The notes beneath the pieces were generated by a model. That model saw only the letters and a list, made by a program, of their open reading frames with translations. It did no database searches and was not told the origin of the DNA. Position numbers and translations under genes: made by a program. Positions 32,594-50,111 of a DNA stretch of 64,000 nucleotides are shown here, in pieces (positions within the stretch are counted from its first letter, which is position 1; each line of letters opens with the position of its first letter). Origin of the DNA: an uncultured archaeon (GTDB taxonomy: Archaea; Asgardarchaeota; Lokiarchaeia; Sigyniarchaeales; SOKP01); the NCBI GenBank assembly GCA_964653985.1, contig CAZZIC010000001.1:15489-79488 (forward strand), in the 5' to 3' direction.

Positions 32594-33226
32594 TCAGTTA
32601 GACCTCGATTCTGGTTCTAAATCCTCGTGAGGATCTGTTTCTTTAAGCTCATTAGTTTCATGAGATAAGTGTTTTGATGCAAATATAATTCTTTGTAGTG
32701 CCGTTAAATTAGTACCGATGGCCATGAAGATCATAGTCCAGAATAATGCTATATTAAACCATATTTGTAAAATCGCCCCAATCAAAAGAATTGGGACTCT
32801 ATCCGTTCTCTCCAGCAAACCGACTCCATATAAATCTTTTATTCCCGCAACTTCAATCCTTGCTCTTGTATAAGAAGTCATCAATGCTCCAATTAAAGTG
32901 ATAAGAGCAATGGGTATTGTCGTATATCCACTGAATAAAATTCCTATAAGAATTGCAAAATCTCCATACCTGTCTAATGTTGAATCTAAAAAACCCCCAA
33001 ATTTTGTTGGTCCTTGAGCCCGAGCAACTATCCCATCAAGTTGGTCAAAAAATTCGGTTAAAAACAAAAATATAATGATGATGGGCAAAAATTGAAGGTA
33101 AAATCCAAAAAAACTCACAATAGCACATATTAAACCTCCAATCGTGAAATAATTTGCTGGAATGGTGGATAGTTTCTCACCAAGAGGCTTTAATTTTTTA
33201 GAGATCTTTTTTATCTGTAAGAGCAT
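32594..33226 (-). CDS. CDP-alcohol phosphatidyltransferase (archaeal polar-lipid head-group synthase type)
   Basis: The motif DGIVARAQGPTKFGGFLDSTLDRYGD matches D-G-x2-A-R-x8-G-x3-D-x3-D. The protein has multiple TM helices. Confidence 0.85.
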   Translation of the reverse strand: MLLQIKKISKKLKPLGEKLSTIPANYFTIGGLICAIVSFFGFYLQFLPIIIIFLFLTEFFDQLDGIVARAQGPTKFGGFLDSTLDRYGDFAILIGILFSGYTTIPIALITLIGALMTSYTRARIEVAGIKDLYGVGLLERTDRVPILLIGAILQIWFNIALFWTMIFMAIGTNLTALQRIIFASKHLSHETNELKETDPHEDLEPESRSN

Positions 33227-34962: not shown

Positions 34963-35787
34963 CTATAGGTAGATTTTACTTTCTTTCTTGTTTACAGATT
35001 CTTCGGTTAGATCTTCAATCTTTTTCAAAATTGACAATAAGTTACTTATATTTTGAACTTCCAAAGCATTTTCCGGACATATTTGAACACATTTTAAACA
35101 GCGCATACAATTTTCGATATCAATAGATTGATCTTTAAGATCTATCGCATTAGTAGGGCAATTTTGCTCACAAATTCCACAAGATGTACAGTTCTCCAAA
35201 AAATTTGGCGGTTTGAGGGCATCAAATGCTCTTTTTCTGATCCTTTTTAGAGTCTTCTCGTTGAGAGCTGGAGACTGAATTTCAATAAAACATTTTTTGG
35301 ATTCCGCTTTAAATCTCTTAAAGATTATTTTTGCATAGTCTTTCGCTACTTTAAAATCCCTTTTATTCGGTCTTTCTTCAAGTAGGTCCCAACCAGCTAA
35401 ATTAAAAGTATGTTTTCCTAAAAATTCTGCTGTTGAAATTACATTAAAATTTCGCTCCTGAAACATCCTTATAGTATCATTATGTACAGCCCCTGGTGAA
35501 ACTCCTCCATAAGTAAAAAATAATGCGGTTTTAATTTTTTTGCCATTTAACTTTTTAATCCATTCTCGAATAAATTTAGGAGTACGATAAGCATATACTG
35601 GAGATCCGAATATGAAACCATCAAATTTACTCAAATCAAGGCTTTCCGCTAAAGCTACTCTTTTTTCATTCTCACAAATATTGTAATATTCAACGGAAAC
35701 TCCAAATTTATTAAAAGAATTCATAAGTACTTTTGCGATTTTAGCCGTATTTCCTGTAGCAGAATAATAAATCAAAAGTGTGTTCAT
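34963..35787 (-). CDS. flavodoxin-domain protein fused to a 2x[4Fe-4S] ferredoxin domain
   Basis: The N-terminus is LIYYSATGNTAKIA (flavodoxin FMN loop). The C-terminus has CTSCGICEQNCP and CMRCLKCVQICP. Confidence 0.8.
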   Translation of the reverse strand: MNTLLIYYSATGNTAKIAKVLMNSFNKFGVSVEYYNICENEKRVALAESLDLSKFDGFIFGSPVYAYRTPKFIREWIKKLNGKKIKTALFFTYGGVSPGAVHNDTIRMFQERNFNVISTAEFLGKHTFNLAGWDLLEERPNKRDFKVAKDYAKIIFKRFKAESKKCFIEIQSPALNEKTLKRIRKRAFDALKPPNFLENCTSCGICEQNCPTNAIDLKDQSIDIENCMRCLKCVQICPENALEVQNISNLLSILKKIEDLTEESVNKKESKIYL

Positions 35788-36059
35788 TATTTTTTAAATA
35801 GTTTTTAAGATTGATATTTCGTACATTTAGTTAATAATGCATATTCCATGAAATGACTTATGATATTAAATACTCCATCTTAATTAGGTAAGCAACATAA
35901 ATTTAATTATATAAATTTGTTTGTTCTTATTGTGTTATTATAAAAAATATCATTTGTTTTGTAATAATAATTTATCTTTTCAAAAGCTTAAATATTATAA
36001 AAATTTTAATAATGTAGACAGAAATAAAAAAGGGGTTTTTTGATATTTCGGCAATAAAC

Positions 36060-37838
36060 TTGGAAGAAATAAAACATAAAATTGACGCTGGAGAATTCTT
36101 AAGTGCGCTTAATGAATTAATGTCTTTAGTAAATGATGATAATTATGATGACTTACCTGAAATCTTAGAAGGAATTTTTGAGATTCAAGGGGAGGGTTTT
36201 TTACTAAACCAGGAGCAATTACAGAAGATCAAGCCCTATATTGATGACTTCGATGAGGACATACAGAATTACGCTACGAATATATTTTTAAAAAATATAA
36301 ATAAAGGAATCACCTCCACTAAGGAAGATCTTTCATTTTTAATCTTGAAATTAAGTTCTCTTGATGCTAGCGTGAGAGAAAACATTATAGATTTTTTGAT
36401 TAAAATACATTATAACTTAGAAGAGGATGAAACTAAAAGAATTGTAATTGATGGATTAATAGAGAATTTAGATGATGAATTATGGAATATTCGTATTAAG
36501 ATTATTCGTTTTTTAGATGAAATTCTTACAGATCGCTCAGATCTTATTAAAAAATTCGAAGGTCAATTAGAAATATTATATAATGAGAAAGATATTGATG
36601 TTAAAAAAGAAGCGTTAGATTTTTTATTAAGAGTATTTATAGAAACCTATACAAAAGATGATATAAAAGAAATAATAAATTCAATACCTTATGATGATTG
36701 GGATATACAAGAAAAGAAAATCTTTATAATCGGAAAGCTTGGAATCAATAGAGAAAATTTAATTAGACCAGTGGTTAAAGATTTTATTTATCTATTAGAT
36801 AATAAAAATTATTTGGTTACTAAGGCGATAAAGGATGCAATAACGGAAATGATGGATTACCATGTCCAATTATTTGATGATTCTTTTTTAGAAATTATAA
36901 AAAATAATGAAATCGATCATATAGAATCCATAGAAGAATTAATTAAACTCTCTATTGTAAGAAATGGATTTGAACGTTTTTACCAAATCTTCAAGAAGAT
37001 TCCCCATAACTCTCTACGTCTTGTTAAACCATTAAACACTATTATCAAAAAATTGAATTCTTCAGAGCCTGACTTCTTAGATTCCTTAATGTATCAATTA
37101 ACTATAGAAGTTTTAAAAGATCTAACTAAAGAAAATTATTCTAAACTAAAACTAATTTTACAAGCAAACATGCATTATCATCTCTACTCAAATTGTTATA
37201 AAGCTTTAAATGAAATCGATATTTCCCACGGTAAAGAGGCTGAGATGAAAAGAAGAGAATTATCCCGCTTTTTGGTGGAGAGAATGCCCGATCTTAATTT
37301 TCTTAATGTACAAAAATCGATTGAGTTTAAATTAATGGAAGGTCCCGTACATCTAGGAGAAATAGCAGAAGAATTTGAAGTTAATAAATCAAAACTTAAG
37401 AATTTTATTAATGATTTAATTGAAAAGGAGGAACTTGATGCCTTATTATCTAACGATACCTTAGCATTAAAAGCCTCTACAACTACGGAAGAAGAGGACT
37501 TTCTATTTTTCAAAAAATGGAATATCAATAAAAAACCAAGAGATCCGAAGAACTATGAGGTTAGACTTTTTATTCTAATTAGAAACGTATCGGAAGTGGA
37601 TGTTAATAATTTAAGTGTAAACTTAGAATACCCAGTAAAATTATATGATATTAAATTGGATAGCCAAATACCTAACTCTTTGGAACCGAATCAAGAGCTC
37701 ATACTAACATATGTTTTTCAAAAGAATAAAAAAAGAGAACAATTTCCTAAGACAAGTAATATTAAAGTCATCTTCAACTATAAGAAAAATGGAAAATCTT
37801 GTACAATTGAGAAGAAGTTAGATGTATTATTTTTATAA
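36060..37838 (+). CDS. HEAT/ARM-like alpha-solenoid protein with a possible winged-helix segment and C-terminal beta-rich domain
   Basis: The protein is 592 aa with repetitive ~40-aa helical units (DASVRENIIDFL, LWNIRIKIIRFL, DVKKEALDFL). It also has GPVHLGEIAEEFEVNKSKLKNFINDLIEKEELD and a beta-like tail VRLFILIRNVSEVDVNNLSVNLEYP. The TTG start is uncertain. Confidence 0.5.
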   Translation: MEEIKHKIDAGEFLSALNELMSLVNDDNYDDLPEILEGIFEIQGEGFLLNQEQLQKIKPYIDDFDEDIQNYATNIFLKNINKGITSTKEDLSFLILKLSSLDASVRENIIDFLIKIHYNLEEDETKRIVIDGLIENLDDELWNIRIKIIRFLDEILTDRSDLIKKFEGQLEILYNEKDIDVKKEALDFLLRVFIETYTKDDIKEIINSIPYDDWDIQEKKIFIIGKLGINRENLIRPVVKDFIYLLDNKNYLVTKAIKDAITEMMDYHVQLFDDSFLEIIKNNEIDHIESIEELIKLSIVRNGFERFYQIFKKIPHNSLRLVKPLNTIIKKLNSSEPDFLDSLMYQLTIEVLKDLTKENYSKLKLILQANMHYHLYSNCYKALNEIDISHGKEAEMKRRELSRFLVERMPDLNFLNVQKSIEFKLMEGPVHLGEIAEEFEVNKSKLKNFINDLIEKEELDALLSNDTLALKASTTTEEEDFLFFKKWNINKKPRDPKNYEVRLFILIRNVSEVDVNNLSVNLEYPVKLYDIKLDSQIPNSLEPNQELILTYVFQKNKKREQFPKTSNIKVIFNYKKNGKSCTIEKKLDVLFL

Positions 37839-37873
37839 ATATGAAATAATTGAAAAAGATAATTTGAAAGTTA

Positions 37874-39616
37874 TCAGAATCTTTCCTTTTTAGCCTTTTC
37901 AAAGAACGACTCATCTTTAAAGAGACTGATCCTGTCCCCTTCATTTCCGTTAGAATAATCTTGAAATCCGATATAAACCCACTTTATTAAGTCATTAAGA
38001 ACATAATGTCCATCCCAAGGGAGTCCAATCGGATGAATATTGTGCTCTCCTACTCTCGGGAATCGATATGCACCTAATAATGAGAATTCTTCTGCGACTT
38101 CCTCAATAAACTCGTCAGATCCATAAACTGATATAGTCTGAAGGTATTGTTGTAATTCTTCTTTTCGAATAGAATAAATTAGATTATTAATGTCAGATAC
38201 TCTGGTTACTATTACAAATCGATTTTGACACATATCTATTTCACCCTTTTTCGGTAAATCTCTTAAATAGACAACAGTCCAATCTAATTTCTCGTTAGGA
38301 GGAGTTATAATAGTTGCTCGATTTTTTGTAGCATAATTCATAAAGAAATATTCACGTTTTCTAGTCATTTCCAACCCATCCGTATGTGTAAGATTTGCAC
38401 GAGGTAAAATTTTATCTGTTCTTTTTAAACTCTCTGCAAGTAATCGAGCGAAGCCAATAGGTGATAACTCCGATAGTTCATTTCTGACCCTTTTTACTGA
38501 TCGCTCCATTAAAGCTTTCATATTGCGATTAAATGAACTCTCTGCTTCTGAACTCTTATTATAAGTCTTAATTAGGGAATCTACGATAGATTTATTCGCT
38601 AAAGTTCCATTAGTTTTAGATCTTATTTTATTATTATTATTATTATTAGTTTGAGACCCTACTGCTGATTTATGAGGATCATCAACAATATAGATAACTC
38701 TCGGACTTAAACATGCCTTCTGATTCCAACAAGCAACATCTATAGCCAATTTTTGAATTAACTCACTCATTTTTTCCTCATTTTGAAAAAAAGATTCAGA
38801 GATGACGCTAAAGGACAGCTTAGGTCCATGATCTATTACTTTAATTCCAAAGCGATATGCTCTTCTCCTTATTTCCTCGATAGAATAAATCCCTCCCCAT
38901 GCAATTACTGCATCTATATATCCAGAATTGAAAAGGTCATCGTAAATATCTCCTCGACTCCCTCTCCAATAAAGAGCCGCAATTTCCTTTGCGATATTCT
39001 TATCCACATCCATTATGGATTCGCATAATTTAATTATAATATACGGTTCTCCGTGTGATAATTTTACTAAATTTACATTTTTAGAAACGAGCCCATAAAA
39101 TAAAGTTAGGAAACCTAAGTTAAAGGCATTCCCGGCCATATTATGCATTACTAAACCTCTGGGTTGTGCATGAATTTTAGAATTTCCTTTAGGGATCCAA
39201 TCCTCTAAAAATCGCTTTCCTCCAATTTCCCGTGATAATTGGAGTTCAGCATTATCTTTATTCCACAATTCAGTGGTTCCACTTAATTCTATTTCACAAA
39301 GTTCTTTTGATTCTCCGGTCATTAAGGGCAGTACTTCCATTATTTCTTTACGTATGTCATAATTACGATCTGCCCAAAGACTCCCGACTTGATCGATGAT
39401 TTCGAGCACTTCTTCAATATCTCTATTATGTGCTCTTCTTTTTTTATAGGAAAGATTTTCAGCAATTTTAAGTACTTTCTCTTTATCATAAATTGGAAAT
39501 TCAATTTCTAAAACATCATCTTGTCGTTTGATCACTATCTTTTCTTTGGTTTCACCAAATTTTGGTTCAAATATAAAGGCAGGTATATTTCTTTCTATTT
39601 TTGTCATTTTAACCAC
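37874..39616 (-). CDS. LuxC-like acyl-CoA reductase (aldehyde-forming) family protein with a poly-Asn insertion
   Basis: The candidate catalytic-Cys segment is WNQKACLSPRVIYIV. The overall length is ALDH-fold-like and the gene is adjacent to a LuxE-like gene. A low-complexity insertion reads GSQTNNNNNNKIRSKTNG. Confidence 0.65.
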   Translation of the reverse strand: MVKMTKIERNIPAFIFEPKFGETKEKIVIKRQDDVLEIEFPIYDKEKVLKIAENLSYKKRRAHNRDIEEVLEIIDQVGSLWADRNYDIRKEIMEVLPLMTGESKELCEIELSGTTELWNKDNAELQLSREIGGKRFLEDWIPKGNSKIHAQPRGLVMHNMAGNAFNLGFLTLFYGLVSKNVNLVKLSHGEPYIIIKLCESIMDVDKNIAKEIAALYWRGSRGDIYDDLFNSGYIDAVIAWGGIYSIEEIRRRAYRFGIKVIDHGPKLSFSVISESFFQNEEKMSELIQKLAIDVACWNQKACLSPRVIYIVDDPHKSAVGSQTNNNNNNKIRSKTNGTLANKSIVDSLIKTYNKSSEAESSFNRNMKALMERSVKRVRNELSELSPIGFARLLAESLKRTDKILPRANLTHTDGLEMTRKREYFFMNYATKNRATIITPPNEKLDWTVVYLRDLPKKGEIDMCQNRFVIVTRVSDINNLIYSIRKEELQQYLQTISVYGSDEFIEEVAEEFSLLGAYRFPRVGEHNIHPIGLPWDGHYVLNDLIKWVYIGFQDYSNGNEGDRISLFKDESFFEKAKKERF

Positions 39617-39706
39617 CTTAATTTTAATTTAGTAGTAATATGAATAAAATTAATGTAAAAAATATAAATTTTAAACGGAAAAAAAATAAAATAGTTTAAT
39701 AATCTT

Positions 39707-40891
39707 TTAATTAGAACTATCCTCAACTATTTGCGCTCCGCAACCTCTAGCCTCTGTTCCTTCTGCTCTCCCGTGAATCTCGATAACTTTTCCTTTTCTT
39801 CCACAAGGACATTCATCTTCCATAACTATACTTATGATATCGTCTTGAAGCACTGAGACCCCACAATAGCTATATGCGATCGGATTAATTACATTCGCCA
39901 ATCCTTTCTCTCCTATCCCTACTGGCTCCATGGTTTCAACATCTCTTACGATTATCTTTTGCCAAGGTAATAAATGTTTATTATGGTGTTCACATTCCAC
40001 GTGGACATTATCAGTTTCTGTAAAGCTATAAACATCAAAAATATGATCTTCTCTTAATCCCAATATTTTAACCATATCTTCCCTAAATTTTTTTGGTTCA
40101 ACTGCCTCACCTGAATAAGTTTTCCAGCCTCCGCCAACACAGATTACGGAATCTTCACCGACAGTGAATGTATTTCCGGTTTTATTATGATATTCAGATA
40201 GAGTCTTATACATCAAAGGAACGGAACCTCCGATCCAACCTCTCCCTTTTTCGGAAGGATTTGAACTGAGAAATCCAAAAGTTCTTTCTGGATCGAAATC
40301 GAACAATTTTCCTTTTTTTCTCTCTTCTTCACTAGCTAACTTTAGCGCATATACACGATCTTCCATAGGAAGTTTGTTTGCCACGTTAAAGATATATCCC
40401 ATATGATTCATTGGAGTCTTAACCTCGTCATCCACAGTAAGTCGTCTCTGTGGTTGTGGTTGAAAAAATAAACTCCATTGATATTCTGGTAAATTACACA
40501 TTTCAGTCATAACAAACTCAAACATCTTAAAATATCTATCAATAGTCACTTTATCTCTTCCAATAATAGAAGGATCACCGGATGTCCCGCTTGATCGGGT
40601 CCACACTTGGATTTGTTCTTCTGGAACACATAGCAATTCTTTGGGTGTGCCCGAATGTTGCTTAAAATTAGCTGTTGTAAGATAAGGAATATTTTTTATA
40701 TCCTCTGGTTCTTTTAAGTCTCTCTTCGGATTGAAGTTTTTTTGTTTACAAAATTGGCGATACTTACTACAGTTCTTAATTTGGTGCATCGCTGTTTCCT
40801 TAATCGCCTTAAACCGTTCTAATTTTACTTCTTCTTGATTTTCTTTTCTAAGGTTTTTTTTACCCTTATTAAATAACGTATCGATTATCAT
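39707..40891 (-). CDS. LuxE/PaaK-like acyl-adenylate-forming enzyme (acyl-protein synthetase family)
   Basis: The adenylation P-loop is TRSSGTSGDPS. The size is ~390 aa, the gene is paired with a LuxC-like gene, and the C-terminus has CPCGRKG. Confidence 0.65.
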   Translation of the reverse strand: MIIDTLFNKGKKNLRKENQEEVKLERFKAIKETAMHQIKNCSKYRQFCKQKNFNPKRDLKEPEDIKNIPYLTTANFKQHSGTPKELLCVPEEQIQVWTRSSGTSGDPSIIGRDKVTIDRYFKMFEFVMTEMCNLPEYQWSLFFQPQPQRRLTVDDEVKTPMNHMGYIFNVANKLPMEDRVYALKLASEEERKKGKLFDFDPERTFGFLSSNPSEKGRGWIGGSVPLMYKTLSEYHNKTGNTFTVGEDSVICVGGGWKTYSGEAVEPKKFREDMVKILGLREDHIFDVYSFTETDNVHVECEHHNKHLLPWQKIIVRDVETMEPVGIGEKGLANVINPIAYSYCGVSVLQDDIISIVMEDECPCGRKGKVIEIHGRAEGTEARGCGAQIVEDSSN

Positions 40892-41011
40892 TTTTGACCT
40901 TTAAAATTTATTCTTATGATAAAACTATCATAAAATTATTCATTTATTAATTTGAGTTTTTAAAAAACGTCAAAACAAAAAAGAAAAAAAAGAGTTAATA
41001 AGATATTGTGC

Positions 41012-42328
41012 TTAATCTCCACCAACTATTGATACAAAGGCCATGTTGTTGAAGTAATAATCCAAATCTTTGTTTCCGTATATTTCTCCTCCAGAACCTA
41101 AAATCATCTTTGGAATATCCTTACCTATTGTTTTATTAATCTTTTTAACTATGGTAGGAATGTTATCTCCATAAGCAAATAAGCGTATGGCACAATCGAA
41201 GCCTAAAAAGAATTTAGGATTTGGTATTCCTTCTATTGCTTGAGTGACGGTATCCACAGCGGTTTTAATTAAGATATCCATGTTACTTCTAAAAATTTCA
41301 ATTTCGTCGGGGACTCTCTCAAAAGGAAACCCGGTATTTAAAAGGCTTTCAAACTCTGGATTCGTAATTGTCGCAGTTAAATGGATATAATCACTGTTTC
41401 CGATCTTTTCTTGTGTACCCAAAATTGTGTGATAATTAAGATAATCAGCTGTTTTTAGCTCATGTAATGACTCCATTTTGATATTTGCTGCATTGCATAA
41501 TCCTATTAAGGCAGGTTCATCATCGATCCTTAAAAGAAAGCTGCCGATATTTTTAGTTGGGACACATTTATTTCCCGTCGGTTCTGCCCCAGCAGCAAAT
41601 CCGAACCCAAATTTGGTTTTATTCTGGGGGGTAAGAAATACTCCGATAACATTATCATCCCCGACTTCATTATTATAGAATTCAACAGAATCATAATTAC
41701 GTACATTTGTAGCAACATTTCCTACGACACGGTTTTCCCAACCTTGTGAATACAATTCTTCCAATAGTTCTTGGACTGATGGCATACCTTGTCCTTCTTC
41801 TTTGAAGTCCTCAAGTTGTTTTTTAAAAAAACGATTAACAAGCCCAGAAAAAAGTGAAACTACACGGCTATTAAGAGTTTCTTGTTTTTTCAATACCTCT
41901 GGAGGGAATTTCATTCCATCTTGAAACATCAACAAGAAACGATCGTCGTTATCTTCTAAATTCTTCGCTATTTCATGAATTTGTCGGGCTATTTTTTCAT
42001 ATTCTAACCTTGATTTTCCAAAGTTAAACGATGCGTCAACGAAAAAATCTCCACCTAACACCATCAAGCCAACACTGTGTAAAGCAAATCTGTCATTTAC
42101 AAGTACTCCATTAGTTGTACTTCCGATTAGGATAACATCTTGTCCTATTACATCTCTGACTCCTTTTAACACATCTTTATAGTTATATTTTACACGGGTT
42201 AGAGAATCGACCCCTAATATTGCGAGTTTAGGATCTGTGCTAATCATTTCCAAAGCTTTATCAGCAACTGTCTTTCCAGCCTCATAACTATTATCTTTTG
42301 TTGATATTCCGGTTCCTGCTTCAATCAT
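41012..42328 (-). CDS. FIST-domain (FIST_N + FIST_C) sensory protein
   Basis: The N-terminus GTGISTKDNSYEAGKTVADKAL...PKLAILGVDS and the later GGDFF...FGF..G pattern are typical of FIST proteins. This is a by-eye call. Confidence 0.55.
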   Translation of the reverse strand: MIEAGTGISTKDNSYEAGKTVADKALEMISTDPKLAILGVDSLTRVKYNYKDVLKGVRDVIGQDVILIGSTTNGVLVNDRFALHSVGLMVLGGDFFVDASFNFGKSRLEYEKIARQIHEIAKNLEDNDDRFLLMFQDGMKFPPEVLKKQETLNSRVVSLFSGLVNRFFKKQLEDFKEEGQGMPSVQELLEELYSQGWENRVVGNVATNVRNYDSVEFYNNEVGDDNVIGVFLTPQNKTKFGFGFAAGAEPTGNKCVPTKNIGSFLLRIDDEPALIGLCNAANIKMESLHELKTADYLNYHTILGTQEKIGNSDYIHLTATITNPEFESLLNTGFPFERVPDEIEIFRSNMDILIKTAVDTVTQAIEGIPNPKFFLGFDCAIRLFAYGDNIPTIVKKINKTIGKDIPKMILGSGGEIYGNKDLDYYFNNMAFVSIVGGD

Positions 42329-42386
42329 AATTTATAATTTTAATTTTTGATTTTATTATTCGATTTTAGTCTTTTTTTTTAATATT

Positions 42387-42974
42387 TTAGATACCTTCTA
42401 AGAATGTACTGATTTTTTTTTGGATCTCTCCCATATCATTTGATAGATCTTTCAAGAACGATTTTAATTTTGAAATTATTTCTTCTTCATTTACTTCCGC
42501 TCCTATAGGTTCAGTGAATTCTGGTTTGGGTTCTTTTGTTTTAAGGGGTTTAATTTCGGCTTCTAATTCTGATTCCTCCTCAGTAAGAAGGATTTCCTCA
42601 AATTCTTCATCTCGTTCAATAATTCCTTCGAGTTTAGCAAGCTTAGGGAATTGCTCTGGTTCGCTTCCACTTTCCACAACCTCTATACTAGCCCCATAGA
42701 GCTTTTTCTTAGCCTTAATCTTCGTTGCTGAGACGCCTGCGAAGTATCTATCCATCATGTTTGATTTAGCTCCGCTCCAAATCCAAATTTTCGTTCTTTT
42801 CGCATGAGTATCAATGATTATGTAGATTTTCCCTTCATTAAGTTTTGTCGTATCAATAGGTTCGATTTTCCTTCCTTCTAATTGATATATTTTTAAACTC
42901 AAAATACTCACCATTTTATTTTTATTATCTGACCATTTATCATAATTTATGTTTTTATAATTCTTTGTTTCCAA
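42387..42974 (-). CDS. gelsolin-domain protein (single gelsolin/villin-type domain + acidic helical tail)
   Basis: The segment LKIYQLEGRKIEPIDTTKLNEGKIYIIIDTHAKRTKIWIWSGAKSNMMDRYFAGVSATKIKAKKKLYGASIEVVESGSEPEQFPKL follows the gelsolin repeat pattern (sL.sgd.yiLd.g..iyvW.G..s...e+..A...A..i......a.i..v.eg.EP..F). The start is ambiguous: a TTG at 42974 overlaps the upstream gene by 28 nt, and the ATG at 42914 is the alternative. Confidence 0.7.
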   Translation of the reverse strand: METKNYKNINYDKWSDNKNKMVSILSLKIYQLEGRKIEPIDTTKLNEGKIYIIIDTHAKRTKIWIWSGAKSNMMDRYFAGVSATKIKAKKKLYGASIEVVESGSEPEQFPKLAKLEGIIERDEEFEEILLTEEESELEAEIKPLKTKEPKPEFTEPIGAEVNEEEIISKLKSFLKDLSNDMGEIQKKISTFLEGI

Positions 42975-43963
42975 TTTTCGATACTTTTACCTATCCTGAT
43001 ACTTTCATCGGAGTTGAGGGCTCTCTGGATTTTTTTTAATCCTTTTGCCGTCTTTGAAATATCGTAAAGAGCAAGGGACGTTCCAATGTTAAGTAAAATG
43101 ACATCTTTCAATTCTTCAAGTACTTTAAACAACTCATTTCCAGAAAGATATTGGAGGTTTTGCTTTATATTGTCAAATATTTTTCTGAGAGTTTCATACT
43201 TTTCTGTACCCGCTGTATCTTTCAATGATTCTATCATATCTTTTAATTTCATGACCGTATCTTCTTGCGGAATAACGGTTTCTTGAGATGGTGCTTCTTC
43301 GATAGGTTCAAGTTTGACTGCTCTCTTTTCAACATGTTCCATAGGAATACTTTCTTTTTTTGCTTCGCTCCCTTCTGTTTTTATCACTTCTGGTCTACTT
43401 GCTTCCACTTCAAGAGATTCTATGGGTACTTTTTCTGGCTTTACTTCTTTTTTGGCTGAAATTTTCTCGGCAGCCTTAGCAACTGGAGCTTGAACTTCAT
43501 CTGTTTCTCTAAGAGAGACTTGGGTCGGTATTTTTTCTGCCTTTTCTCCTAAAGCGCCAAATTTCTTTCCCGGTATTTTTAAGATCTCATCACCCATATC
43601 AGCGATTTTGCTCCTTATCCTCTCTAAAATATCAATCATAGCTAGCTTCACATAGGATAAATTCACTTCGTCTGAGCCCATAGCTAATAAGAGCAAATGA
43701 GGAGGAATATCATATAATAAAATATACCCTTTGTCTCCTTCTATCATTAACTCATTAAGGGCACCATGATTAATTCCATGAGAAAATTGTCTAAATGTGT
43801 CTCTAAGAACACCAATTTCCCATAAGATTTTCTCTGGAACTTTAAATGGAATAGTTGATTCAATAACTTCGTCATTTTTCACATTTATGAAAAAACACCC
43901 ATTTAAGTCAGTAATCTTTTCTATTTCGTTTAAATAACTAGTTAAATTGTAATTGTCGCTCAA
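42947..43963 (-). CDS. Roadblock/LC7 (MglB-like) domain protein with long A/E/K/P-rich linker and helical C-domain
   Basis: The N-terminal ~120 aa, LNGCFFINVKNDEVIEST...ALNELMIEGDKGYILLYDIPPHLLLLAMGSDEVNLSYVKLAMIDILERI, matches Robl/LC7. The TTG start overlaps the upstream stop (TTGA), with GGAGGTG 8 nt upstream (complement of 43972-43978). Confidence 0.7.
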   Translation of the reverse strand: MSDNYNLTSYLNEIEKITDLNGCFFINVKNDEVIESTIPFKVPEKILWEIGVLRDTFRQFSHGINHGALNELMIEGDKGYILLYDIPPHLLLLAMGSDEVNLSYVKLAMIDILERIRSKIADMGDEILKIPGKKFGALGEKAEKIPTQVSLRETDEVQAPVAKAAEKISAKKEVKPEKVPIESLEVEASRPEVIKTEGSEAKKESIPMEHVEKRAVKLEPIEEAPSQETVIPQEDTVMKLKDMIESLKDTAGTEKYETLRKIFDNIKQNLQYLSGNELFKVLEELKDVILLNIGTSLALYDISKTAKGLKKIQRALNSDESIRIGKSIENWKQRIIKT

Positions 43964-44367
43964 ATATCAGACACCTCCAACTTAAATCCTTTCAATAATT
44001 TTTCAAGTTCAATGGAAATATTGCTCATACCGAAAGCAATTCTAAAAAGATCAGCATTTTTATCAATAATGGTAGTTAGTATTGCATTTTTTCCAGCATT
44101 TTGAATGATCACTCTCCCATAGTCAGAGTTCATATAAAGTCTTTTAAGTTCCCCTTTCCGCAATTTATTGCATAAATATCTAAAGGTTAACTTTACTGCG
44201 GCGGAAAGAGCTCCAACTAATATTGGATCTATTTTTCCTTTCCATGTATTTACGATTGGTACACCATCAGGATAAGCTATAACTATCTGACCTTTAACAT
44301 CGCTCTGAGACTCAGTAAATTCTCTAATTATTCCTTTTAATTTATTTAATGTTTGATCATTCGACAA
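43960..44367 (-). CDS. Roadblock/LC7 (MglB-like) protein
   Basis: The 135-aa sequence VKGQIVIAYPDGVPIVNTWKG...ILVGALSAAVKLTFRYL...LKRLYMNSDYGRVIIQNAGKNAILTTIIDKNADLFRIAFGM shows the typical Robl fold pattern. Confidence 0.75.
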   Translation of the reverse strand: MSNDQTLNKLKGIIREFTESQSDVKGQIVIAYPDGVPIVNTWKGKIDPILVGALSAAVKLTFRYLCNKLRKGELKRLYMNSDYGRVIIQNAGKNAILTTIIDKNADLFRIAFGMSNISIELEKLLKGFKLEVSDI

Positions 44368-44583
44368 AATAATCAGTCTTTTTTACATTTTAATGTAGAT
44401 ATATAATCTTAATTTGAGCATAAAAACATTTAGATTTTTGATGTTTACAATATTGGGAAAAAGAACTTTGTAAGAAATAGGGAAAATTGTAGATTTATTC
44501 TAATCTAATAGAATCTAACAGATGATAAAACTATTAAAGTTGCAAAAAATAATATTCGCTCTAAGTCTTTTGGAATTAAAGGA

Positions 44584-46128
44584 TTAAAATCCTTTTTCTT
44601 CTTGTGAGACAAAGAATTCACTCGCTAACTTTACATCTTTAAAAGTTAGTTCTCTCTTTAAAGAGTCCTTTAAATCCTTAATATATTGTTTACAAAGATC
44701 TAATTTTAACGAACTTCCTCTCATTTCAATCATATTTTGTAATGCCTTGGCGAAATCCTCAATGCTTTCTAAATCTTCATAATCCTCTTTTTTTATTTCA
44801 ATATGATTTTCTTTTTCCTTTTGTTTTTTATCGAAGACATTTAATTCAATGTTTATATCTTCAGGTGCCAATCTCAATTTTCTTTTTTTAGCTTTTTCTT
44901 TATTCTCTTCTTTTAATTTATTTATAGATTTCTCATCCTTGGTCGAGATTGGTTTAACGGTTGGCTTTCTGCCTTTTGATTGAGGAAGGGGTTTCACAGA
45001 AACCTTTTTTGTAAATCTTATCTTTTCAGGGGGAGCAAATTTTTTCTTTCGCTCCAGCTTTTTTCTAATCTCCTTTTCTTCTTCCAATTCTTTATTTAGT
45101 TTTTCAACTTTCTTCTTAAATGAATCAATATATGTAAAGTTCTGATATTCATTACAGATATTAATCAATTGCTTATATTTTGATATCGCAGCAGCTAATT
45201 GATGTTGCTCCTCGAAAGTTTTAGCCTCTTGCTGCAATTTATCAAAAGATTCTGGTAATCCTTTTTTTAATTTGAGAGTTTCTCCAATCAATTGGTTAAT
45301 TTTTATTTTCGCGTCTGGTGATTTTAGGGAAATCTCCTCGAAATTTTTAATCCCTAACTCATTTTTAATCTTTGGGATGGCAGATTTATCTATTAAATCT
45401 TTTTTATTTCCTAACTTAAGAAATTTAGATAGATTAGCTTCTCTTTTCTTGAGATCTAAAAAATGGTGAATAATTTTAAGGTTATATTTTGATAAATCAA
45501 AAAGAAAAATAACAAGATCTGACCCTTTGATAAACTTTGACCACAATAAGGAAAAATTGTCTTTTAATTGAAAATCCCATAAATCAAAACTTACATCATT
45601 AATAATATATTTTGATGCTTTTGCGAAATTCATAATTGATCGTTCATTTTCAACCCTTAGCAAATCATAGAGAGTGGTTTTCCCCGCATTCATGGGTCCG
45701 ATAATCGCAATTTTTGAATGCAATTCTTTTTGCATTTCGCTTAAAAACTTTAGGAAGTCTTCATATTCGGAAGAGTTTTCATCTATATTTTTTGGGGTTG
45801 AAAAAAGGTCGGAAAATGTTTTTATTATTTTAGAGAGTATTTTGTCAACATAATTAATTGAATCAATGGGATCGGTAATAACGATAAAATATAACTTTCC
45901 CTTACCTTGATGGAACAGTTGATATTCTGAAAGAGGACGCTGAAAAGCTTTTCCAGGCATAGGCATATCAATATATGACTTTATTAATTCAAGTGATTTA
46001 TCAAGATCTTCTCTTCCCAGTGCTTGGGCATAAGAATGAGTAAACACGACCTTTCCATCATATAAAACATGAATTTGTCTTAACATTTTTCTCGGGTAAT
46101 TTATTGTAGCCGCAAAATTTTTTTTCAA
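44584..46128 (-). CDS. multidomain small GTPase: N-terminal longin/roadblock-like domain, P-loop GTPase core with atypical G3, K/E-rich coiled-coil tail
   Basis: G1 is GPMNAGKTT. At the G3 position the sequence is LWDFQLKDNFSLLW where DxxGQ is expected. G4 is GNKKDL. The N-terminus MLRQIHVLYDGKVVFTHSY...KLYFIVITDPIDSINYVDKILSKIIKTF is longin-like. The longest ORF starts at a TTG (46128), and the ATG at 46086 is an alternative start. Confidence 0.7.
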   Translation of the reverse strand: MKKNFAATINYPRKMLRQIHVLYDGKVVFTHSYAQALGREDLDKSLELIKSYIDMPMPGKAFQRPLSEYQLFHQGKGKLYFIVITDPIDSINYVDKILSKIIKTFSDLFSTPKNIDENSSEYEDFLKFLSEMQKELHSKIAIIGPMNAGKTTLYDLLRVENERSIMNFAKASKYIINDVSFDLWDFQLKDNFSLLWSKFIKGSDLVIFLFDLSKYNLKIIHHFLDLKKREANLSKFLKLGNKKDLIDKSAIPKIKNELGIKNFEEISLKSPDAKIKINQLIGETLKLKKGLPESFDKLQQEAKTFEEQHQLAAAISKYKQLINICNEYQNFTYIDSFKKKVEKLNKELEEEKEIRKKLERKKKFAPPEKIRFTKKVSVKPLPQSKGRKPTVKPISTKDEKSINKLKEENKEKAKKRKLRLAPEDINIELNVFDKKQKEKENHIEIKKEDYEDLESIEDFAKALQNMIEMRGSSLKLDLCKQYIKDLKDSLKRELTFKDVKLASEFFVSQEEKGF

Positions 46129-46299
46129 TAAAGATTTTTAATTAACATAAGTTTTCCTAATAAGATTATAAAAAAACTCTATTATAATATTTTATACTTT
46201 CTTAGGATTAATTACACTTAATAGAAATTAAAAAAATTTGTATTTTAATAATTATTTATTTAAAAAAGCAATCACGTCATAACTTGGTAGACTTAAAAA

Positions 46300-47253
46300 A
46301 TGCCCTTAGAAGGAGACCACATATTAAAATTTTTAGGAAATCCGGTAAATGAGAGATATAATGATGAGTTATTAGATTTATTTATAGAGAGGATCGATGA
46401 ATTATGCTTCAAGGAATGCGAAATTGACCGAATAGCGTGTACATTAACCCCCATGTGCTCAAGACGCTACCTGTTAAAGCTCCGCATAATAAATGGATTG
46501 GGCATAGATGATTTGCCAAAGTTTTGTTATAGTGTTCATAAAGGAGTAGTAGAACGGGAATTTCGCGGAAAAACAGTTATATATAGACCCTTTGATTCAT
46601 ATCTTTATTTAATTGATTTTTTAGACATTTATTTCCATGGAGATTACAGAAAATTAAATAAATATATTTCATTTAAAAATTGGGAAGAAGCGTTTGAAAT
46701 CCTTGATAAGAGAATATCAAAGGGAGAGAAGTTTAATTATCATAAAACAGATAACTACATTATTTTTAAATTTGAGGAAAGAATGCATATAATTTTTATT
46801 GAACAAAAGTATGTTATTTGCAATGTGAATAGGGAAAATCTTCCTTCTCTTGAATTAATTAAGGGAATACTTGAATTGAATTCACAAGTAAATTTTCCCG
46901 AAGTTAAAATTAAGTTAAGTCCATCCCATTTTGTAGAATTAAGAATCAAATTACCAAATGATGTAATTTCAAAAGTTAAACATAATTATTTAGAAAGTGA
47001 GGAAAAATCTACAAGAGACACTTACTTTTGGGAAAAATTCCCTGAAGATATATCCTCATTAACAGAATTTTGTCAAGAAATAAGTATGGAAATGAATTGG
47101 AGTAAAGATTTAGAAATTAAATTATTTATAAGCACAAACAAAAACTATTCCAATCATATAAATAAAAAAGCTCCTTTACGATATAGAGATTTAAGATCGA
47201 TTATTGAATTTATTAATAAAATCTACAACCAGTTCTATGTGATTTGGGTTTAG
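46300..47253 (+). CDS. hypothetical protein (317 aa)
   Basis: This is a long ORF with an ATG start and coding-like composition. I recognise no motifs. Confidence 0.5.
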   Translation: MPLEGDHILKFLGNPVNERYNDELLDLFIERIDELCFKECEIDRIACTLTPMCSRRYLLKLRIINGLGIDDLPKFCYSVHKGVVEREFRGKTVIYRPFDSYLYLIDFLDIYFHGDYRKLNKYISFKNWEEAFEILDKRISKGEKFNYHKTDNYIIFKFEERMHIIFIEQKYVICNVNRENLPSLELIKGILELNSQVNFPEVKIKLSPSHFVELRIKLPNDVISKVKHNYLESEEKSTRDTYFWEKFPEDISSLTEFCQEISMEMNWSKDLEIKLFISTNKNYSNHINKKAPLRYRDLRSIIEFINKIYNQFYVIWV

Positions 47254-47301
47254 AAAATTAAGTTAAGATATTTAAATTAAAATTTAAAAAAGGTATTGAA
47301 T

Positions 47302-48429
47302 ATGCCAGAAAACCAAAAAGTACCCGAGGAAATTGAAAGGGTCAAAGAATTAGTAAATGAAGGAAGAATAGATGATTCTGTAGAGGTCATAGCTGAGTAT
47401 TTAGAACGCTCTGAGGAAGATAATTACATTGATAGATTAGAAAACATTATAGAAATTTTACTTTCATTACATGGTGGAAAAACAGTTCTTAGATTTCTTA
47501 TTGAGCATCAAATCATAGATATTCCATCATTATTAAAGAATCTCTCGAAACGTGATAGTTTATTGAGATACTCTTTTCTATTACTCCTGAAATCTATGTG
47601 TGAAAACGAAAGTGATTTATTTTTACCTTATGCTGAGGATCTATTGGAAAATGAAGATCCTAATGTAAAAGAAGCCGCTCTTCAATTAATGGTTTTTATG
47701 GCGGGTGGTGAAAAAGATATTGCTGACGATTCATTAATTCAATTACTTGGATCAAAATTAACAGATGAAAAAGAATTTGTTATTGAAAAGGCAACTCAAG
47801 CTCTAGTTGCGCTAGGTAAGAAATCTCCTTCAATAATAACCAAAACCTTAAGTAATTGCGCTCGAGAATATTCTGAAAACGAGGAACTTAAAGATAATAT
47901 TGACGATGTTTTAAAATCAATTGTTTCCATAGAAAAATTTGAAGAAATTGTTGAGGAAGAAAAAGAGGAACCCAAAGAAAAGCCCACTACTGAAGAAGAA
48001 TCCATGGAAATCTCCGAAAAGGCGGAAACTAAAAAGGAAGTTAAGCCTGAAAAAGAAGAGGAAAAAAAGGAAAAAAAGAAAGGAGAAATTAAAAAGGCAG
48101 AAAAAGAAATAAAAGAGGAAGAAGGAAAGATCTTGGATAAAGAGCTAGCATTAAAAAAGAAGAAATTAGCGTTAAAAAAGAAAAGATTGGAACTTCAAGC
48201 CAAAGAAAAGGAGTTAGAAGAAAAAGAAATTGCTGAGAAAGAAAAAGCGCTTAAAAAGAAACAAGAATTGATAGAAAAAGAAAAAGAACTTTCTCAAGTA
48301 GAATTAGAATTAAAAGAAAAATCAATTGAAGAGAAGGAACAACAAATTAAGAAACAAGAAGCTAAGCGCCTCAGAGAACAAATCAAAAGTATGGAAGAGG
48401 AAAATAAAGAGAATAATGAAAATTCTTAG
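47302..48429 (+). CDS. HEAT-repeat N-domain protein with a K/E-rich coiled-coil C-half
   Basis: The helical repeats include DPNVKEAALQLMVFMAG and EFVIEKATQALVALG. The ~170-aa tail has E/K heptads (KEKELEEKEIAEKEKALKKKQ...). The track ORF begins at a TTG (47296), and the ATG at 47302 is preferred. Confidence 0.55.
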   Translation: MPENQKVPEEIERVKELVNEGRIDDSVEVIAEYLERSEEDNYIDRLENIIEILLSLHGGKTVLRFLIEHQIIDIPSLLKNLSKRDSLLRYSFLLLLKSMCENESDLFLPYAEDLLENEDPNVKEAALQLMVFMAGGEKDIADDSLIQLLGSKLTDEKEFVIEKATQALVALGKKSPSIITKTLSNCAREYSENEELKDNIDDVLKSIVSIEKFEEIVEEEKEEPKEKPTTEEESMEISEKAETKKEVKPEKEEEKKEKKKGEIKKAEKEIKEEEGKILDKELALKKKKLALKKKRLELQAKEKELEEKEIAEKEKALKKKQELIEKEKELSQVELELKEKSIEEKEQQIKKQEAKRLREQIKSMEEENKENNENS

Positions 48430-48437
48430 GACATTTT

Positions 48438-49412
48438 CTATATAGGTGTTTCTTTAAGGCGTTTTTTCATTTTCCTTACTTCATTTATTCTATGATCTTC
48501 TGAAGGTAATTCTTTTGATAAATTATCAGTAAGATGATATGCTTCCTCAATAAACCTTAAATTTTCTAAGAATTCAATCAATTGAATCTTGTTGTCAACA
48601 TTACTTATTTTTTTTTCAAATTCAATGAGTTTTTCTTTAATGATATTATGAATGTTCCCTTTTTTCTCAAGATCCTTCACAGTTCGTATCAATTGTGTCA
48701 AGGTATTCATAATATTATATTTTTCTCCTTCAGAATATTGATCTAAGTGAGTTAAGATATCGCTTACATAGGTTTCAGCCTGCTTATATTCTTCATGTTT
48801 CACTGATAATTCAATTAATTCCATTAAGGATAATTCATAAAGAAACTTGCTTTCCACATTGGGAACGACCTTTTCATATATCCAATTAATAAGCTTTGGA
48901 TAATCGAATTTCTTAATAACATCAGCTAAGAATTTTATTACCGAAAAATAGAGTTTCGCATTCTCTGTTTTTACAGAGGTTAGAAAGGAAACCAAGGCAT
49001 ATTTTACTCGACCTATTGCATCATCAAACTGTTCCGGATCCTCAGCAAATTTATAATAAGCAGATTCGAGAATTGATTTAATCTTTTCTTGATTTTTAAA
49101 ATCATATATGAAGTATTCCGTCCATATTGGCTCGGGAACTCCCTTCTTTTGGGTTTTCTTGCTCTTTGAAGAAGAACTTTTTTCCGATGATTTTTTTTCC
49201 TCATGTTCTTCTATTTCTTTCTCGGAAATAACGTTTAATATTATTTTTTCTTTATTTTTAGGAACAATTAGATTAAAGTATACATCTTCCTCCTCTTCAA
49301 ATAAATCATCTCGAAGTTCCTTAGGAAAAGTAATTCCAGTTTTAGTTTTCTTGATTATTTTTTGGTAATACGGTTCTTCCTCCAATTCATTGGAACCCTT
49401 TTTATCTTCCAT
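48438..49412 (-). CDS. hypothetical protein; possible AbrB/SpoVT-like N-terminus, helical C-domain
   Basis: The N-terminal TGITFPKELRDDLFEEEEDVYFNLIVPKNKEKIILNVI resembles a swapped-hairpin DNA-binding motif. The similarity is weak and by eye. Confidence 0.45.
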   Translation of the reverse strand: MEDKKGSNELEEEPYYQKIIKKTKTGITFPKELRDDLFEEEEDVYFNLIVPKNKEKIILNVISEKEIEEHEEKKSSEKSSSSKSKKTQKKGVPEPIWTEYFIYDFKNQEKIKSILESAYYKFAEDPEQFDDAIGRVKYALVSFLTSVKTENAKLYFSVIKFLADVIKKFDYPKLINWIYEKVVPNVESKFLYELSLMELIELSVKHEEYKQAETYVSDILTHLDQYSEGEKYNIMNTLTQLIRTVKDLEKKGNIHNIIKEKLIEFEKKISNVDNKIQLIEFLENLRFIEEAYHLTDNLSKELPSEDHRINEVRKMKKRLKETPI

Positions 49413-49514
49413 AGTATTCTAAACCTAAATTTAAAATTAAATGTTCTTGTTCAAAATGACTCTGACTGAAGCTTTAGATTGTATTATAAAGATTTCTTTT
49501 AAATAGTAATTTTA

Positions 49515-50111
49515 TTATCCTGTAATATTTACTAATTCAACCCCACGTACATCAAAATTTTTATCTATAAAACAAAGAATCGCATGTCCTTTATGACTAT
49601 ACACTAAGGGCACCGGATAGGAATCAGCAGATTCCACAAAACTCTTTTTAACAAAAATGGGGAGAACTGTTTTGCATACTCTGCAATGTACATTAATTTT
49701 TTTCACAAGGTTCAAATCTTTAAAATTTTTAACTGATTCTTCTGCTACTTTCTCGAAGTTTTTAAAGATGCTTGCTGTGATATTTTCGAATTCCAAGATT
49801 ACAGGTATATCAAACATCTCATTAAATTTTATATCAATATGTTCAAGAAGAGCTTCTAATAGCTGAAATTGAACTTCATTGACAGCGCCAACCGTATATA
49901 TCAAATTGTTCTTCCTAATATGGACCATTTTACTGTTTCCTTTATATATATGAAAGAAGATACCTTCTGTTGCATGTTCTTTGACGATATTTAAATCTAA
50001 AATATAGCTTTTAAAAGAACGAGGAGGCTTCCATTCAAATAAAGTCATATGATCCGTTGAGATATTGATAAAATTAAGCTTGTCTTGAATATTATTATAA
50101 TTAGAATTCAT
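49515..50111 (-). CDS. hypothetical protein; possible longin/roadblock-like N-domain, C-terminal CxxC...HxGH segment
   Basis: GIFFHIYKGNSKMVHIRKNNLIYTVGAVNEVQFQLLEALLEHIDIKFNEMF is longin-like. The C-terminal segment is VHCRVCKTVLPIF...VYSHKGHAILCFID. This is a by-eye call. Confidence 0.45.
   Translation of the reverse strand: MNSNYNNIQDKLNFINISTDHMTLFEWKPPRSFKSYILDLNIVKEHATEGIFFHIYKGNSKMVHIRKNNLIYTVGAVNEVQFQLLEALLEHIDIKFNEMFDIPVILEFENITASIFKNFEKVAEESVKNFKDLNLVKKINVHCRVCKTVLPIFVKKSFVESADSYPVPLVYSHKGHAILCFIDKNFDVRGVELVNITG

Follow-up and report, generated by a model that had tools for sequence, protein, structure and literature searches.

In the MglA/MglB system of Myxococcus and Thermus, a Ras-like GTPase docks on a platform formed by a Roadblock dimer, and MglA provides a link to the actin-like MreB cytoskeleton; in Ragulator, heterodimeric Roadblock pairs (LAMTOR2/3 and LAMTOR4/5) form a scaffold that integrates a metabolite signal. 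For eukaryogenesis, control of the actin cytoskeleton in Asgard archaea is still an open question, and to our knowledge the profilins and gelsolins of these archaea have been studied just as single proteins in isolation. Among the gelsolins, the 1DGelX class (one gelsolin domain plus a helical extension) has been defined for Asgard archaea, and the Thor 1DGelX severs actin in a Ca2+-independent manner (PMC7444086); Akil et al. (2022, PMC9433394) reported two 1DGelX genes in MK-D1 and three in Lokiarchaeum GC14_75 and used a WxG motif to recognise gelsolin domains. Asgard archaea have many Roadblock and GTPase genes, for most of which the genome layout does not reveal the partner; Tran et al. 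(2024, PMC10933270) state that, as a rule, the GTPase genes of MK-D1 do not share operons with Roadblock genes. Rag-family fusions of longin/Roadblock domains with GTPases, as well as a LAMTOR1-like–Rab-like–DENN operon, have also been described in Asgard archaea, for which operons joining Roadblock-superfamily and GTPase genes have been predicted (Liu et al., 2021, 10.1101/2020.10.19.343400). We here describe a gene cluster found in a 64,000-nucleotide (nt) stretch of DNA, hereafter the window, from an uncultured archaeon of Lokiarchaeia (contig CAZZIC010000001.1, positions 15,489 to 79,488). On its minus strand, two Roadblock/LC7 proteins (Robl1 and Robl2), a single-domain gelsolin protein, a FIST protein and LuxE- and LuxC-family enzymes are encoded in this order, immediately beside a gene for an Arf-like GTPase. 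An earlier note on this DNA had joined the GTPase, the two Roadblock genes and the gelsolin gene into one operon. The comparison with related genomes divides these genes into two independent synteny blocks, and the locus is evidence for a Roadblock–gelsolin module, not for control of actin by the adjacent GTPase.

The window is AT-rich (G+C about 30%), and its proteins match those of uncultured Promethearchaeota (Loki-type Asgard archaea). Related loci were recovered by scanning a genome collection with an alignment of the gelsolin family and, reciprocally, by scanning metagenomes with an alignment of the FIST family; none of the recovered loci is from a named cultured species. The gelsolin scan gave 17 Promethearchaeota loci, one of them a degraded duplicate (L016 in our numbering), and Robl2 stands directly upstream of the gelsolin gene in all except this duplicate. 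On the longer contigs Robl1 precedes Robl2, the FIST, LuxE and LuxC genes follow downstream in order, and a convergent gene for a protein of about 600 amino acids (aa) comes after LuxC. Seven further loci came from the FIST scan, with one of them (L023) duplicating a locus already in hand (L007); wherever upstream sequence is available, Robl2 and gelsolin precede FIST, and so does Robl1 where the contig reaches it. The adjacency of Robl2 and gelsolin has been found in 23 independent loci in total, and Robl1 is present too in the 18 of these 23 that are long enough. The order holds down to 37–40% gelsolin identity, the most divergent members of the gelsolin family (39–41% identity) belong to the same cluster, and the NCBI locus tags of Robl2 and gelsolin are consecutive where they are given. 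The series Robl1–Robl2–gelsolin–FIST–LuxE–LuxC, closed by a convergent HEAT-like gene, is a Lokiarchaeia-specific cluster, and the part of the earlier proposal that linked two Roadblock genes to a gelsolin gene is borne out by this synteny survey, with spacing of the translational-coupling type. In the literature searched, whose coverage is incomplete, we found no cluster described that joins Roadblock, gelsolin, FIST and LuxCE genes; the components all come from known families, and their fixed association appears to be undescribed.

The spacing of the genes divides the cluster into a tight core and a looser downstream part. The gap from Robl1 to Robl2 has a median of 2 nt (range −11 to 20) and that from Robl2 to gelsolin 16 nt (0 to 39, apart from L004, where Robl2 is disrupted), followed by 52 nt from gelsolin to FIST (31 to 89), 137 nt from FIST to LuxE (97 to 307) and 90 nt from LuxE to LuxC (63 to 145). 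In the window, the start codon of Robl2 overlaps the stop codon of Robl1 in a TTGA (43960–43963), and a Shine-Dalgarno (SD)-like element, GGAGGTG, is located inside the end of Robl1 at 43972–43978 on the minus strand, 8 nt before the TTG of Robl2; both details, noticed previously, can be read directly from the sequence. SD-like GGTG or GGAGG elements precede Robl2, gelsolin and FIST in most loci. In ten related loci the genes upstream of Robl1 could be identified, and all of them are different: they encode CoA-ligase-like, FGGY kinase, FrhB, PIN-domain and acyl-CoA dehydrogenase proteins, proteins with no informative Pfam match and, in one case, a Ras–leucine-rich-repeat (Ras-LRR) protein. Because the upstream genes differ between genomes, Robl1 should have an independent promoter in those genomes; and on the basis of the junction spacing and this turnover of upstream genes, we take Robl1–Robl2–gelsolin, probably with FIST, as the tight core, which would form one operon with coupled translation. 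LuxE and LuxC may have a promoter of their own; they never leave the cluster in the loci seen.

Some of the contigs carry further genes on the Robl1 side. A tandem array of about six paralogous genes for proteins of about 180 aa is located upstream of Robl1 on the opposite strand in three loci (L005, 4012–8166; L015, 291–4849; and the start of L017), and one copy of the array, when scanned with Pfam, gave no match.

The gelsolin gene (42387–42914, minus strand) encodes a protein of 175 aa with 1DGelX-like architecture. Because its orthologs begin with MS(L/I), we have placed its start at the ATG at 42914; the protein is thus shorter than the 195 aa given previously, and its gene, which had been thought to abut or overlap Robl2, begins 32 nt past the Robl2 stop. 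The assignment itself holds in both profile and structure searches. Pfam Gelsolin (PF00626) gives 28.2 bits against a cut-off of 21, and a profile built from 32 sequences of the family, when compared with PDB, matches Thor 2DGel3 at E = 3.4e-11 and CapG/gelsolin at about 1e-6. The AlphaFold2 (AF2) model comprises a gelsolin domain at aa 7–100, a disordered acidic linker at 113–140 and a conserved C-terminal helix at 143–174, which is the 1DGelX architecture of one gelsolin domain with a helical extension; the predicted local distance difference test (pLDDT) score is about 90 for aa 10–100, and the C-terminal helix is also modelled with confidence. In Foldseek searches of PDB, the top 50 matches are all gelsolin, villin, adseverin, fragmin or Asgard ProGel/2DGel domains, with a root-mean-square deviation of about 1.9 Å over 83–89 columns. 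The closest domains are thus actin-binding gelsolins, including the Asgard 2DGel and ProGel domains crystallised on actin. The WxG signature, here W46-S47-G48, is invariant among the 32 family members. This subfamily consists of 47 clusters, named almost only from Promethearchaeota.

Robl1 (43960–44367, minus strand), the first gene of the conserved cluster, encodes a stand-alone Roadblock/LC7 protein of 135 aa. The sequence alone reaches 20.4 bits against Pfam Robl_LC7 (PF03259), under the cut-off of 23; a profile of its orthologs, which share 60–87% identity, matches MK-D1 Roadblock3 (9jue) at E = 1.7e-15, the Thor Roadblock (7f8m) at E = 2.4e-5 and CvnB5 (3leq) at E = 0.013. The match of the ortholog profile to 9jue confirms the family that had been read from the sequence, and Robl1 is a canonical Roadblock. 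We considered MK-D1 Roadblock3 as a possible ortholog of Robl1 and rejected it, since its identity is well under that among the true orthologs. The start codon of Robl1 is TTG in the window, and this is kept in most orthologs and genomes.

Robl2 (42947–43963, minus strand; 338 aa) has a Roadblock domain at 7–129, a disordered acidic and proline-rich linker of about 95 residues at 136–231 and a five-helix bundle at 233–335, in accord with the layout proposed for it before (a Roadblock domain, a long linker and a helical domain). The window sequence itself gave no match in a Pfam scan; 10 of 13 orthologs match Robl_LC7. AF2 models the N-terminal domain with pLDDT of about 90 and with the topology alpha-beta-beta-alpha-beta-beta-beta-alpha (helices 7–18, 44–63 and 102–129; strands 22–27, 32–36, 71–75, 80–86 and 90–96). 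In Foldseek this domain superposes on the MK-D1 and Thor Roadblocks, MglB and LAMTOR chains with TM (template modelling) scores of 0.75–0.85, and within this range the MK-D1 Roadblocks give 0.80–0.85 and MglB about 0.75–0.82. The profile–profile match between Robl1 and Robl2 is weak (E = 0.0045, probability 7.7%), and therefore the Roadblock assignment of Robl2 rests on structure and on the Pfam matches of its orthologs. The Robl2 family has 34 clusters only, all of them from Promethearchaeota except for one partial sequence. When the C-terminal bundle was used alone in an exhaustive search, only 39 proteins were found among 1.84 billion representatives, most of which share the Robl2 architecture or are short fragments; this five-helix bundle is family-specific and almost confined to the Robl2 architecture.

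The co-directional run on the minus strand continues past gelsolin with three genes that the earlier note did not include. The first (41012–42328) encodes a stand-alone protein of 438 aa with FIST_N and FIST_C domains (Pfam FIST, 8.2e-14; FIST_C, 3.5e-7; also supported by synteny), for which a role as a small-ligand sensor domain is predicted; it is always directly downstream of gelsolin and is the best-conserved protein of the cluster (56–95% identity). The next two, both in conserved position, encode an adenylating enzyme of the LuxE acyl-protein synthetase family (39707–40891; Pfam LuxE, 4.6e-44) and a LuxC-family acyl-CoA reductase (37874–39616; Pfam LuxC, 5.9e-79). In the LuxC of the window, a low-complexity segment rich in asparagine (SQTNNNNNNKIRSKTNG) is inserted mid-enzyme, at about aa 320–345. 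The cluster ends with a plus-strand gene (36060–37838; 592 aa) that the window shares with 10 related loci and that invariably faces LuxC in convergent orientation. Its protein gave no match in a Pfam scan and only weak similarity to the HEAT-repeat protein PP2A-A (E = 0.05–0.3), and we describe it as probably a HEAT-like alpha-solenoid with a beta-rich C-terminus. A search of the proteins of the region against NCBIfam gave nothing useful for any of them.

The aforementioned degraded duplicate (L016) is a second copy of the cluster, at 9974–13016 of contig CAYLZE010000014.1 (reversed), about 14 kb from the main copy (L001) on the same contig. Robl genes are absent from it, its gelsolin gene is a paralog with 37% identity, and FIST and LuxC survive as fragments, that of FIST being N-terminal; the HEAT-like gene is full-length here, whereas the main copy keeps it as a fragment only.

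Taking gene content, folds, conservation of order and spacing together, we consider it probable that the locus holds two units, in one of which the Roadblock pair would scaffold or regulate the 1DGelX-like gelsolin protein with FIST as an input, any GTPase being supplied from elsewhere. A Roadblock heterodimer is proposed because two different Roadblock paralogs are translationally coupled: Robl1 and Robl2 would be made in equal amounts and would assemble into a platform like LAMTOR2/3 or the MglB dimer. Robl2 and gelsolin share a common layout (a folded domain, an acidic disordered linker and conserved terminal helices), and for this reason we regard them as possible tethered partners, in which the linker and helical bundle of Robl2 would tether or recruit partners and the helical tail of the gelsolin protein would probably mediate binding. 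The Roadblock pair is placed as scaffold or regulator of the 1DGelX-like protein because the gelsolin domain is closest to actin binders; the gelsolin protein would then be the output, severing, capping or nucleating lokiactin filaments, and a small-molecule signal, perhaps connected with an acyl metabolite of LuxE/LuxC, would enter through the FIST protein. A small GTPase, if it docks on the Roadblock platform, would be encoded elsewhere in most genomes. The more specific form of this proposal, that the Roadblock heterodimer directly gates a gelsolin severing protein in response to a metabolite sensed by FIST, possibly the acyl or aldehyde product of LuxE/LuxC, is tentative, and we would lean against it as it stands. 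Several points weigh against the regulatory reading as a whole. The cluster keeps no cognate GTPase across the loci, and therefore GTPase control enters only by analogy; the gelsolin and FIST genes of the window itself are without a clear SD-like element; the gaps of 97–307 nt between FIST and LuxE suggest that LuxE and LuxC may be transcribed separately; and the queries used for the gelsolin and FIST loci were exact peptide motifs, so that divergent relatives in other contexts may be missed.

The main rival holds that the gelsolin-fold protein does not regulate actin in this cluster: FIST, LuxE and LuxC would form the centre of a metabolic or signalling circuit for a fatty-acyl or aldehyde compound, to which the Roadblock and gelsolin proteins contribute generic interaction or GTPase-regulatory parts. 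It is consistent with the gradient of conservation, since FIST, LuxE and LuxC are the best-conserved members (56–95% identity) and gelsolin has 37–62% identity in most loci. There are precedents also for such parts, because the gelsolin-like domain of Sec23 joins in the GTPase-activating protein (GAP) function for Sar1, Asgard Sec23-like proteins being without this domain (PMC11914678), and because Roadblock proteins are common in prokaryotes without actin (PMC12962969). However, Sec23/24 does not appear in the top 50 Foldseek matches, and the leading matches in sequence and structure are actin-binding gelsolins including 2DGel and ProGel on actin. The invariance of the WxG signature and the severing of actin by Asgard gelsolins with a single domain plus extension (PMC7444086) argue in the same direction, and we regard this rival as unlikely.

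We next turn to the GTPase gene and to the reading in which it commands the cluster. The gene (44584–46086, minus strand) encodes an atypical Arf-like GTPase, assigned by Pfam Arf, its orthologs and synteny. Together with the three cluster genes Robl1, Robl2 and gelsolin, it makes up the four minus-strand open reading frames on which the operon proposal was based; all four are present where they had been located, with the GTPase shortened from 514 to 500 aa because every ortholog begins with MLRQ, which places the start at the ATG at 46086. In the closest relative (contig SHMV01000001.1, L018/L019), the GTPase is 72% identical and the whole neighbourhood is collinear with the window. The GTPase adjoins the cluster solely in the window and in this relative; it was not found beside the Robl–gelsolin cluster in the other loci that reach upstream of Robl1, and within 8–10 kb upstream in the gelsolin-scan loci no GTPase homolog was detected even at BLASTP E < 10.

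The GTPase instead has a neighbourhood of its own. Upstream of it, as supported by ortholog synteny, are up317 (317 aa, unknown; 46300–47253, plus strand), HEAT377 (a 377-aa HEAT-repeat protein with a K/E-rich tail; 47296–48429, plus strand), p324 (324 aa, unknown; 48438–49412, minus strand) and p198 (198 aa, unknown; 49515–50111, minus strand). These four genes are found upstream of the GTPase also in L018 and in three distant genomes (L020–L022), in the same order and orientation and with 46–67% identity, and they may form a functional module with it. On the other side of the GTPase, the three distant genomes have Peptidase_M32 directly, or Fer4 and then M32, without Robl or gelsolin genes. 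In the window, a flavodoxin/Fer4 gene (34963–35787), Peptidase_M32 (33406–34902) and a CDP-alcohol phosphatidyltransferase (32594–33226) are located just past the cluster. The simplest reading is that in the window lineage the block at 36060–44367, containing the HEAT-like gene, LuxC, LuxE, FIST, gelsolin, Robl2 and Robl1, moved as a unit to between the GTPase and Fer4/M32. When repeats or mobile-element scars were sought at the borders of the block (35700–44650), just short, imperfect, AT-rich matches were found. The GTPase is outside the conserved Roadblock–gelsolin cluster and belongs with the genes at 46300–50111.

The two synteny blocks meet in the 216 nt that separate the GTPase gene from Robl1 (44368–44583, minus strand), an intergenic region whose extent, given previously, was confirmed by reading the sequence. 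It is AT-rich, with T-runs after the GTPase stop, and contains TTATATAT at 44399–44406. The window and L018, both of which have the GTPase upstream, share a conserved stretch of about 45 nt before Robl1 that contains a TTATATA box, and from its sequence the region is a probable promoter and 5' untranslated region of the Robl1 operon. A TGAT-containing element is present 6–9 nt before the Robl1 start in most loci (window 44365–44380; L001–L018), and this could represent a GGTGAT-type portion of the sequence complementary to the archaeal anti-SD. A scan of 42300–46350 for sigma-70 promoters and intrinsic terminators gave no terminators, and its 17 promoter-like sites equal the chance level of 17.6; these are bacterial signals, and the scan is uninformative for an archaeon.

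The GTPase protein has an N-domain at aa 1–122, and a G-domain at aa ~125–270, after which come a helical region, a stretch rich in K/E and, at the C-terminus, a conserved domain; its orthologs (303 matches) are about 500 aa long with 43–50% identity over the full length. The P-loop GTPase core that had been recognised from the sequence is well supported, with 44.7 bits for Pfam Arf against a cut-off of 22.3 (E = 1.3e-11) and with Arf6 and Arf1 as the best PDB matches of the family profile (E = 3e-7); Pfam matches are to Arf, Roc and Ras, with none to Gtr1_RagA. The P-loop and NKxD motifs are intact in the family. The G3 motif, on the other hand, is WDFQLK (aa 170–176 region) where human Arf1 reads WDVGGQ, and D171, F172, Q173 and L174 are nearly invariant among 40 orthologs. 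The family thus departs from the canonical WDxGGQ, both the switch-II (DxxG) glycine and the catalytic glutamine being replaced. Judging from these residues, the protein may bind nucleotide and hydrolyse it poorly, or may use another mechanism. At the N-terminus, in place of the amphipathic helix of Arf proteins, it has a globular domain of about 120 aa that is conserved. This domain matches AP-2 sigma weakly (E = 0.21, residues 1–101 of both proteins), and among 20 orthologs three match Clat_adaptor_s weakly (best E = 0.0033) and one matches SRP-alpha_N; it is a putative longin-like domain.

These data bear on the proposal that the GTPase, Robl1, Robl2 and gelsolin form one operon, in which the GTPase is a switch, the Roadblock proteins act on it as GAP or guanine-nucleotide exchange factor, and the GTPase controls gelsolin. 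The four genes are indeed co-directional and adjacent in the window and in L018/L019, and Roadblock dimers regulate small GTPases in MglA/MglB and in Ragulator/Rag, with which the Foldseek matches agree. The adjacency is, however, limited to the window and this closest relative, and the GTPase orthologs elsewhere stand in their own neighbourhood, beside M32 or Fer4–M32; the two gene groups are separated by the AT-rich gap with its T-runs, in which the part proximal to Robl1 is conserved. In addition, a classical GAP-stimulated cycle is doubtful because the DxxG glycine and catalytic glutamine are missing, and in MK-D1, as mentioned above, GTPase genes are generally outside Roadblock operons. 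The four-gene operon and the switch derived from it are accordingly not sustained, and we judge this proposal improbable; the GTPase gene stands beside the cluster through a lineage-specific juxtaposition, on which no genomic case for GTPase-controlled actin dynamics should be built.

One other GTPase has been seen beside the cluster, besides that of the window type. It is the aforementioned Ras-LRR gene of L007 (5391–8231, minus strand), which encodes a 946-aa Ras/Roc–leucine-rich-repeat (Roco-like) protein and is divergent, upstream of Robl1. We considered an enrichment of GTPase genes upstream of Robl1 and did not find it convincing, since it concerns one of ten loci and GTPase genes are abundant in Loki genomes.

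That the conserved order is merely inherited synteny without functional coupling of the Roadblock, gelsolin and downstream genes is highly improbable: all loci are from one class, Lokiarchaeia, so that shared ancestry contributes, and the 97–307 nt before LuxE permit separate transcription, but the genes flanking Robl1 have been reshuffled throughout with the block intact, the block moved as a unit in the window lineage, the gaps of −11 to 20 nt (Robl1–Robl2) and 0 to 39 nt (Robl2–gelsolin) persist at 37–45% identity except in L004, and Robl2 and gelsolin are small families that are co-distributed.

The cluster offers four small proteins with which a Roadblock input to Asgard actin dynamics can be tested. 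If the more specific form of the proposal, direct gating of the gelsolin protein by the Roadblock heterodimer, were true, Lokiarchaeia would possess a circuit in which actin remodelling responds to the nutrient or lipid state.

Several known systems share parts of this arrangement. LuxC and LuxE of luminous bacteria are represented by strong Pfam matches to both families and by adjacent genes in LuxE–LuxC order, whereas LuxD, the LuxAB luciferase and other lux genes are absent from the cluster, and we know of no pairing of FIST, gelsolin or Roadblock proteins with lux systems. The conservons of Streptomyces (CvnA kinase, CvnB Roadblock, CvnC and CvnD GTPase) join a sensor and a Roadblock protein in a prokaryotic operon; the present cluster has only the Roadblock component in common with them, there is no histidine kinase, DUF742 or GTPase, the sensor would be FIST, and gelsolin is present. 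The GTPase of the window, in joining a putative longin-like domain and a small GTPase, follows a known Asgard theme (10.1101/2020.10.19.343400); it differs from the described fusions in being Arf-like with a degenerate G3, and the operon described there is without gelsolin, FIST and LuxCE.

The gelsolin fold and the WxG signature are common to the Asgard mini-gelsolins (ProGel, 1DGelX and 2DGel; PMC7444086, PMC9433394), among which Thor 2DGel3 is the best PDB match, and 1DGelX has been reported for Thor and Loki genomes. The protein described here has the same architecture as 1DGelX, to which it is likened by architecture; it is much shorter, its linker is acidic and disordered, and just one terminal helix is conserved. 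These two papers make no mention of an operon, a neighbor, genomic context or a partnership with two Roadblock proteins.

With MglA/MglB and Ragulator the likeness is one of analogy only, and membership in either system fails because the cognate GTPase is missing. The N-domain of Robl2 superposes on MglB as described above, whereas the cluster has no conserved cognate GTPase, its Roadblock proteins are two different paralogs, one of them long-tailed, instead of a homodimer, and gelsolin takes the place of MreB. In comparison with Ragulator, the cluster contains neither a Rag-type GTPase (G-domain plus C-terminal Roadblock) nor a LAMTOR1-like anchor, and the adjacent GTPase differs from Rag in being Arf-like, with its extra domain N-terminal and putatively longin-like and without a Gtr1_RagA match. 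The heterodimeric Roadblock pairs of Ragulator nevertheless have a counterpart in Robl1 and Robl2, the structural matches extend to LAMTOR chains, and FIST could be the sensor where Ragulator integrates its metabolite signal; if the direct-gating form of the proposal is true, the cluster would represent a prokaryotic forerunner of Ragulator-type Roadblock signalling, wired to the cytoskeleton with or even without a small GTPase.

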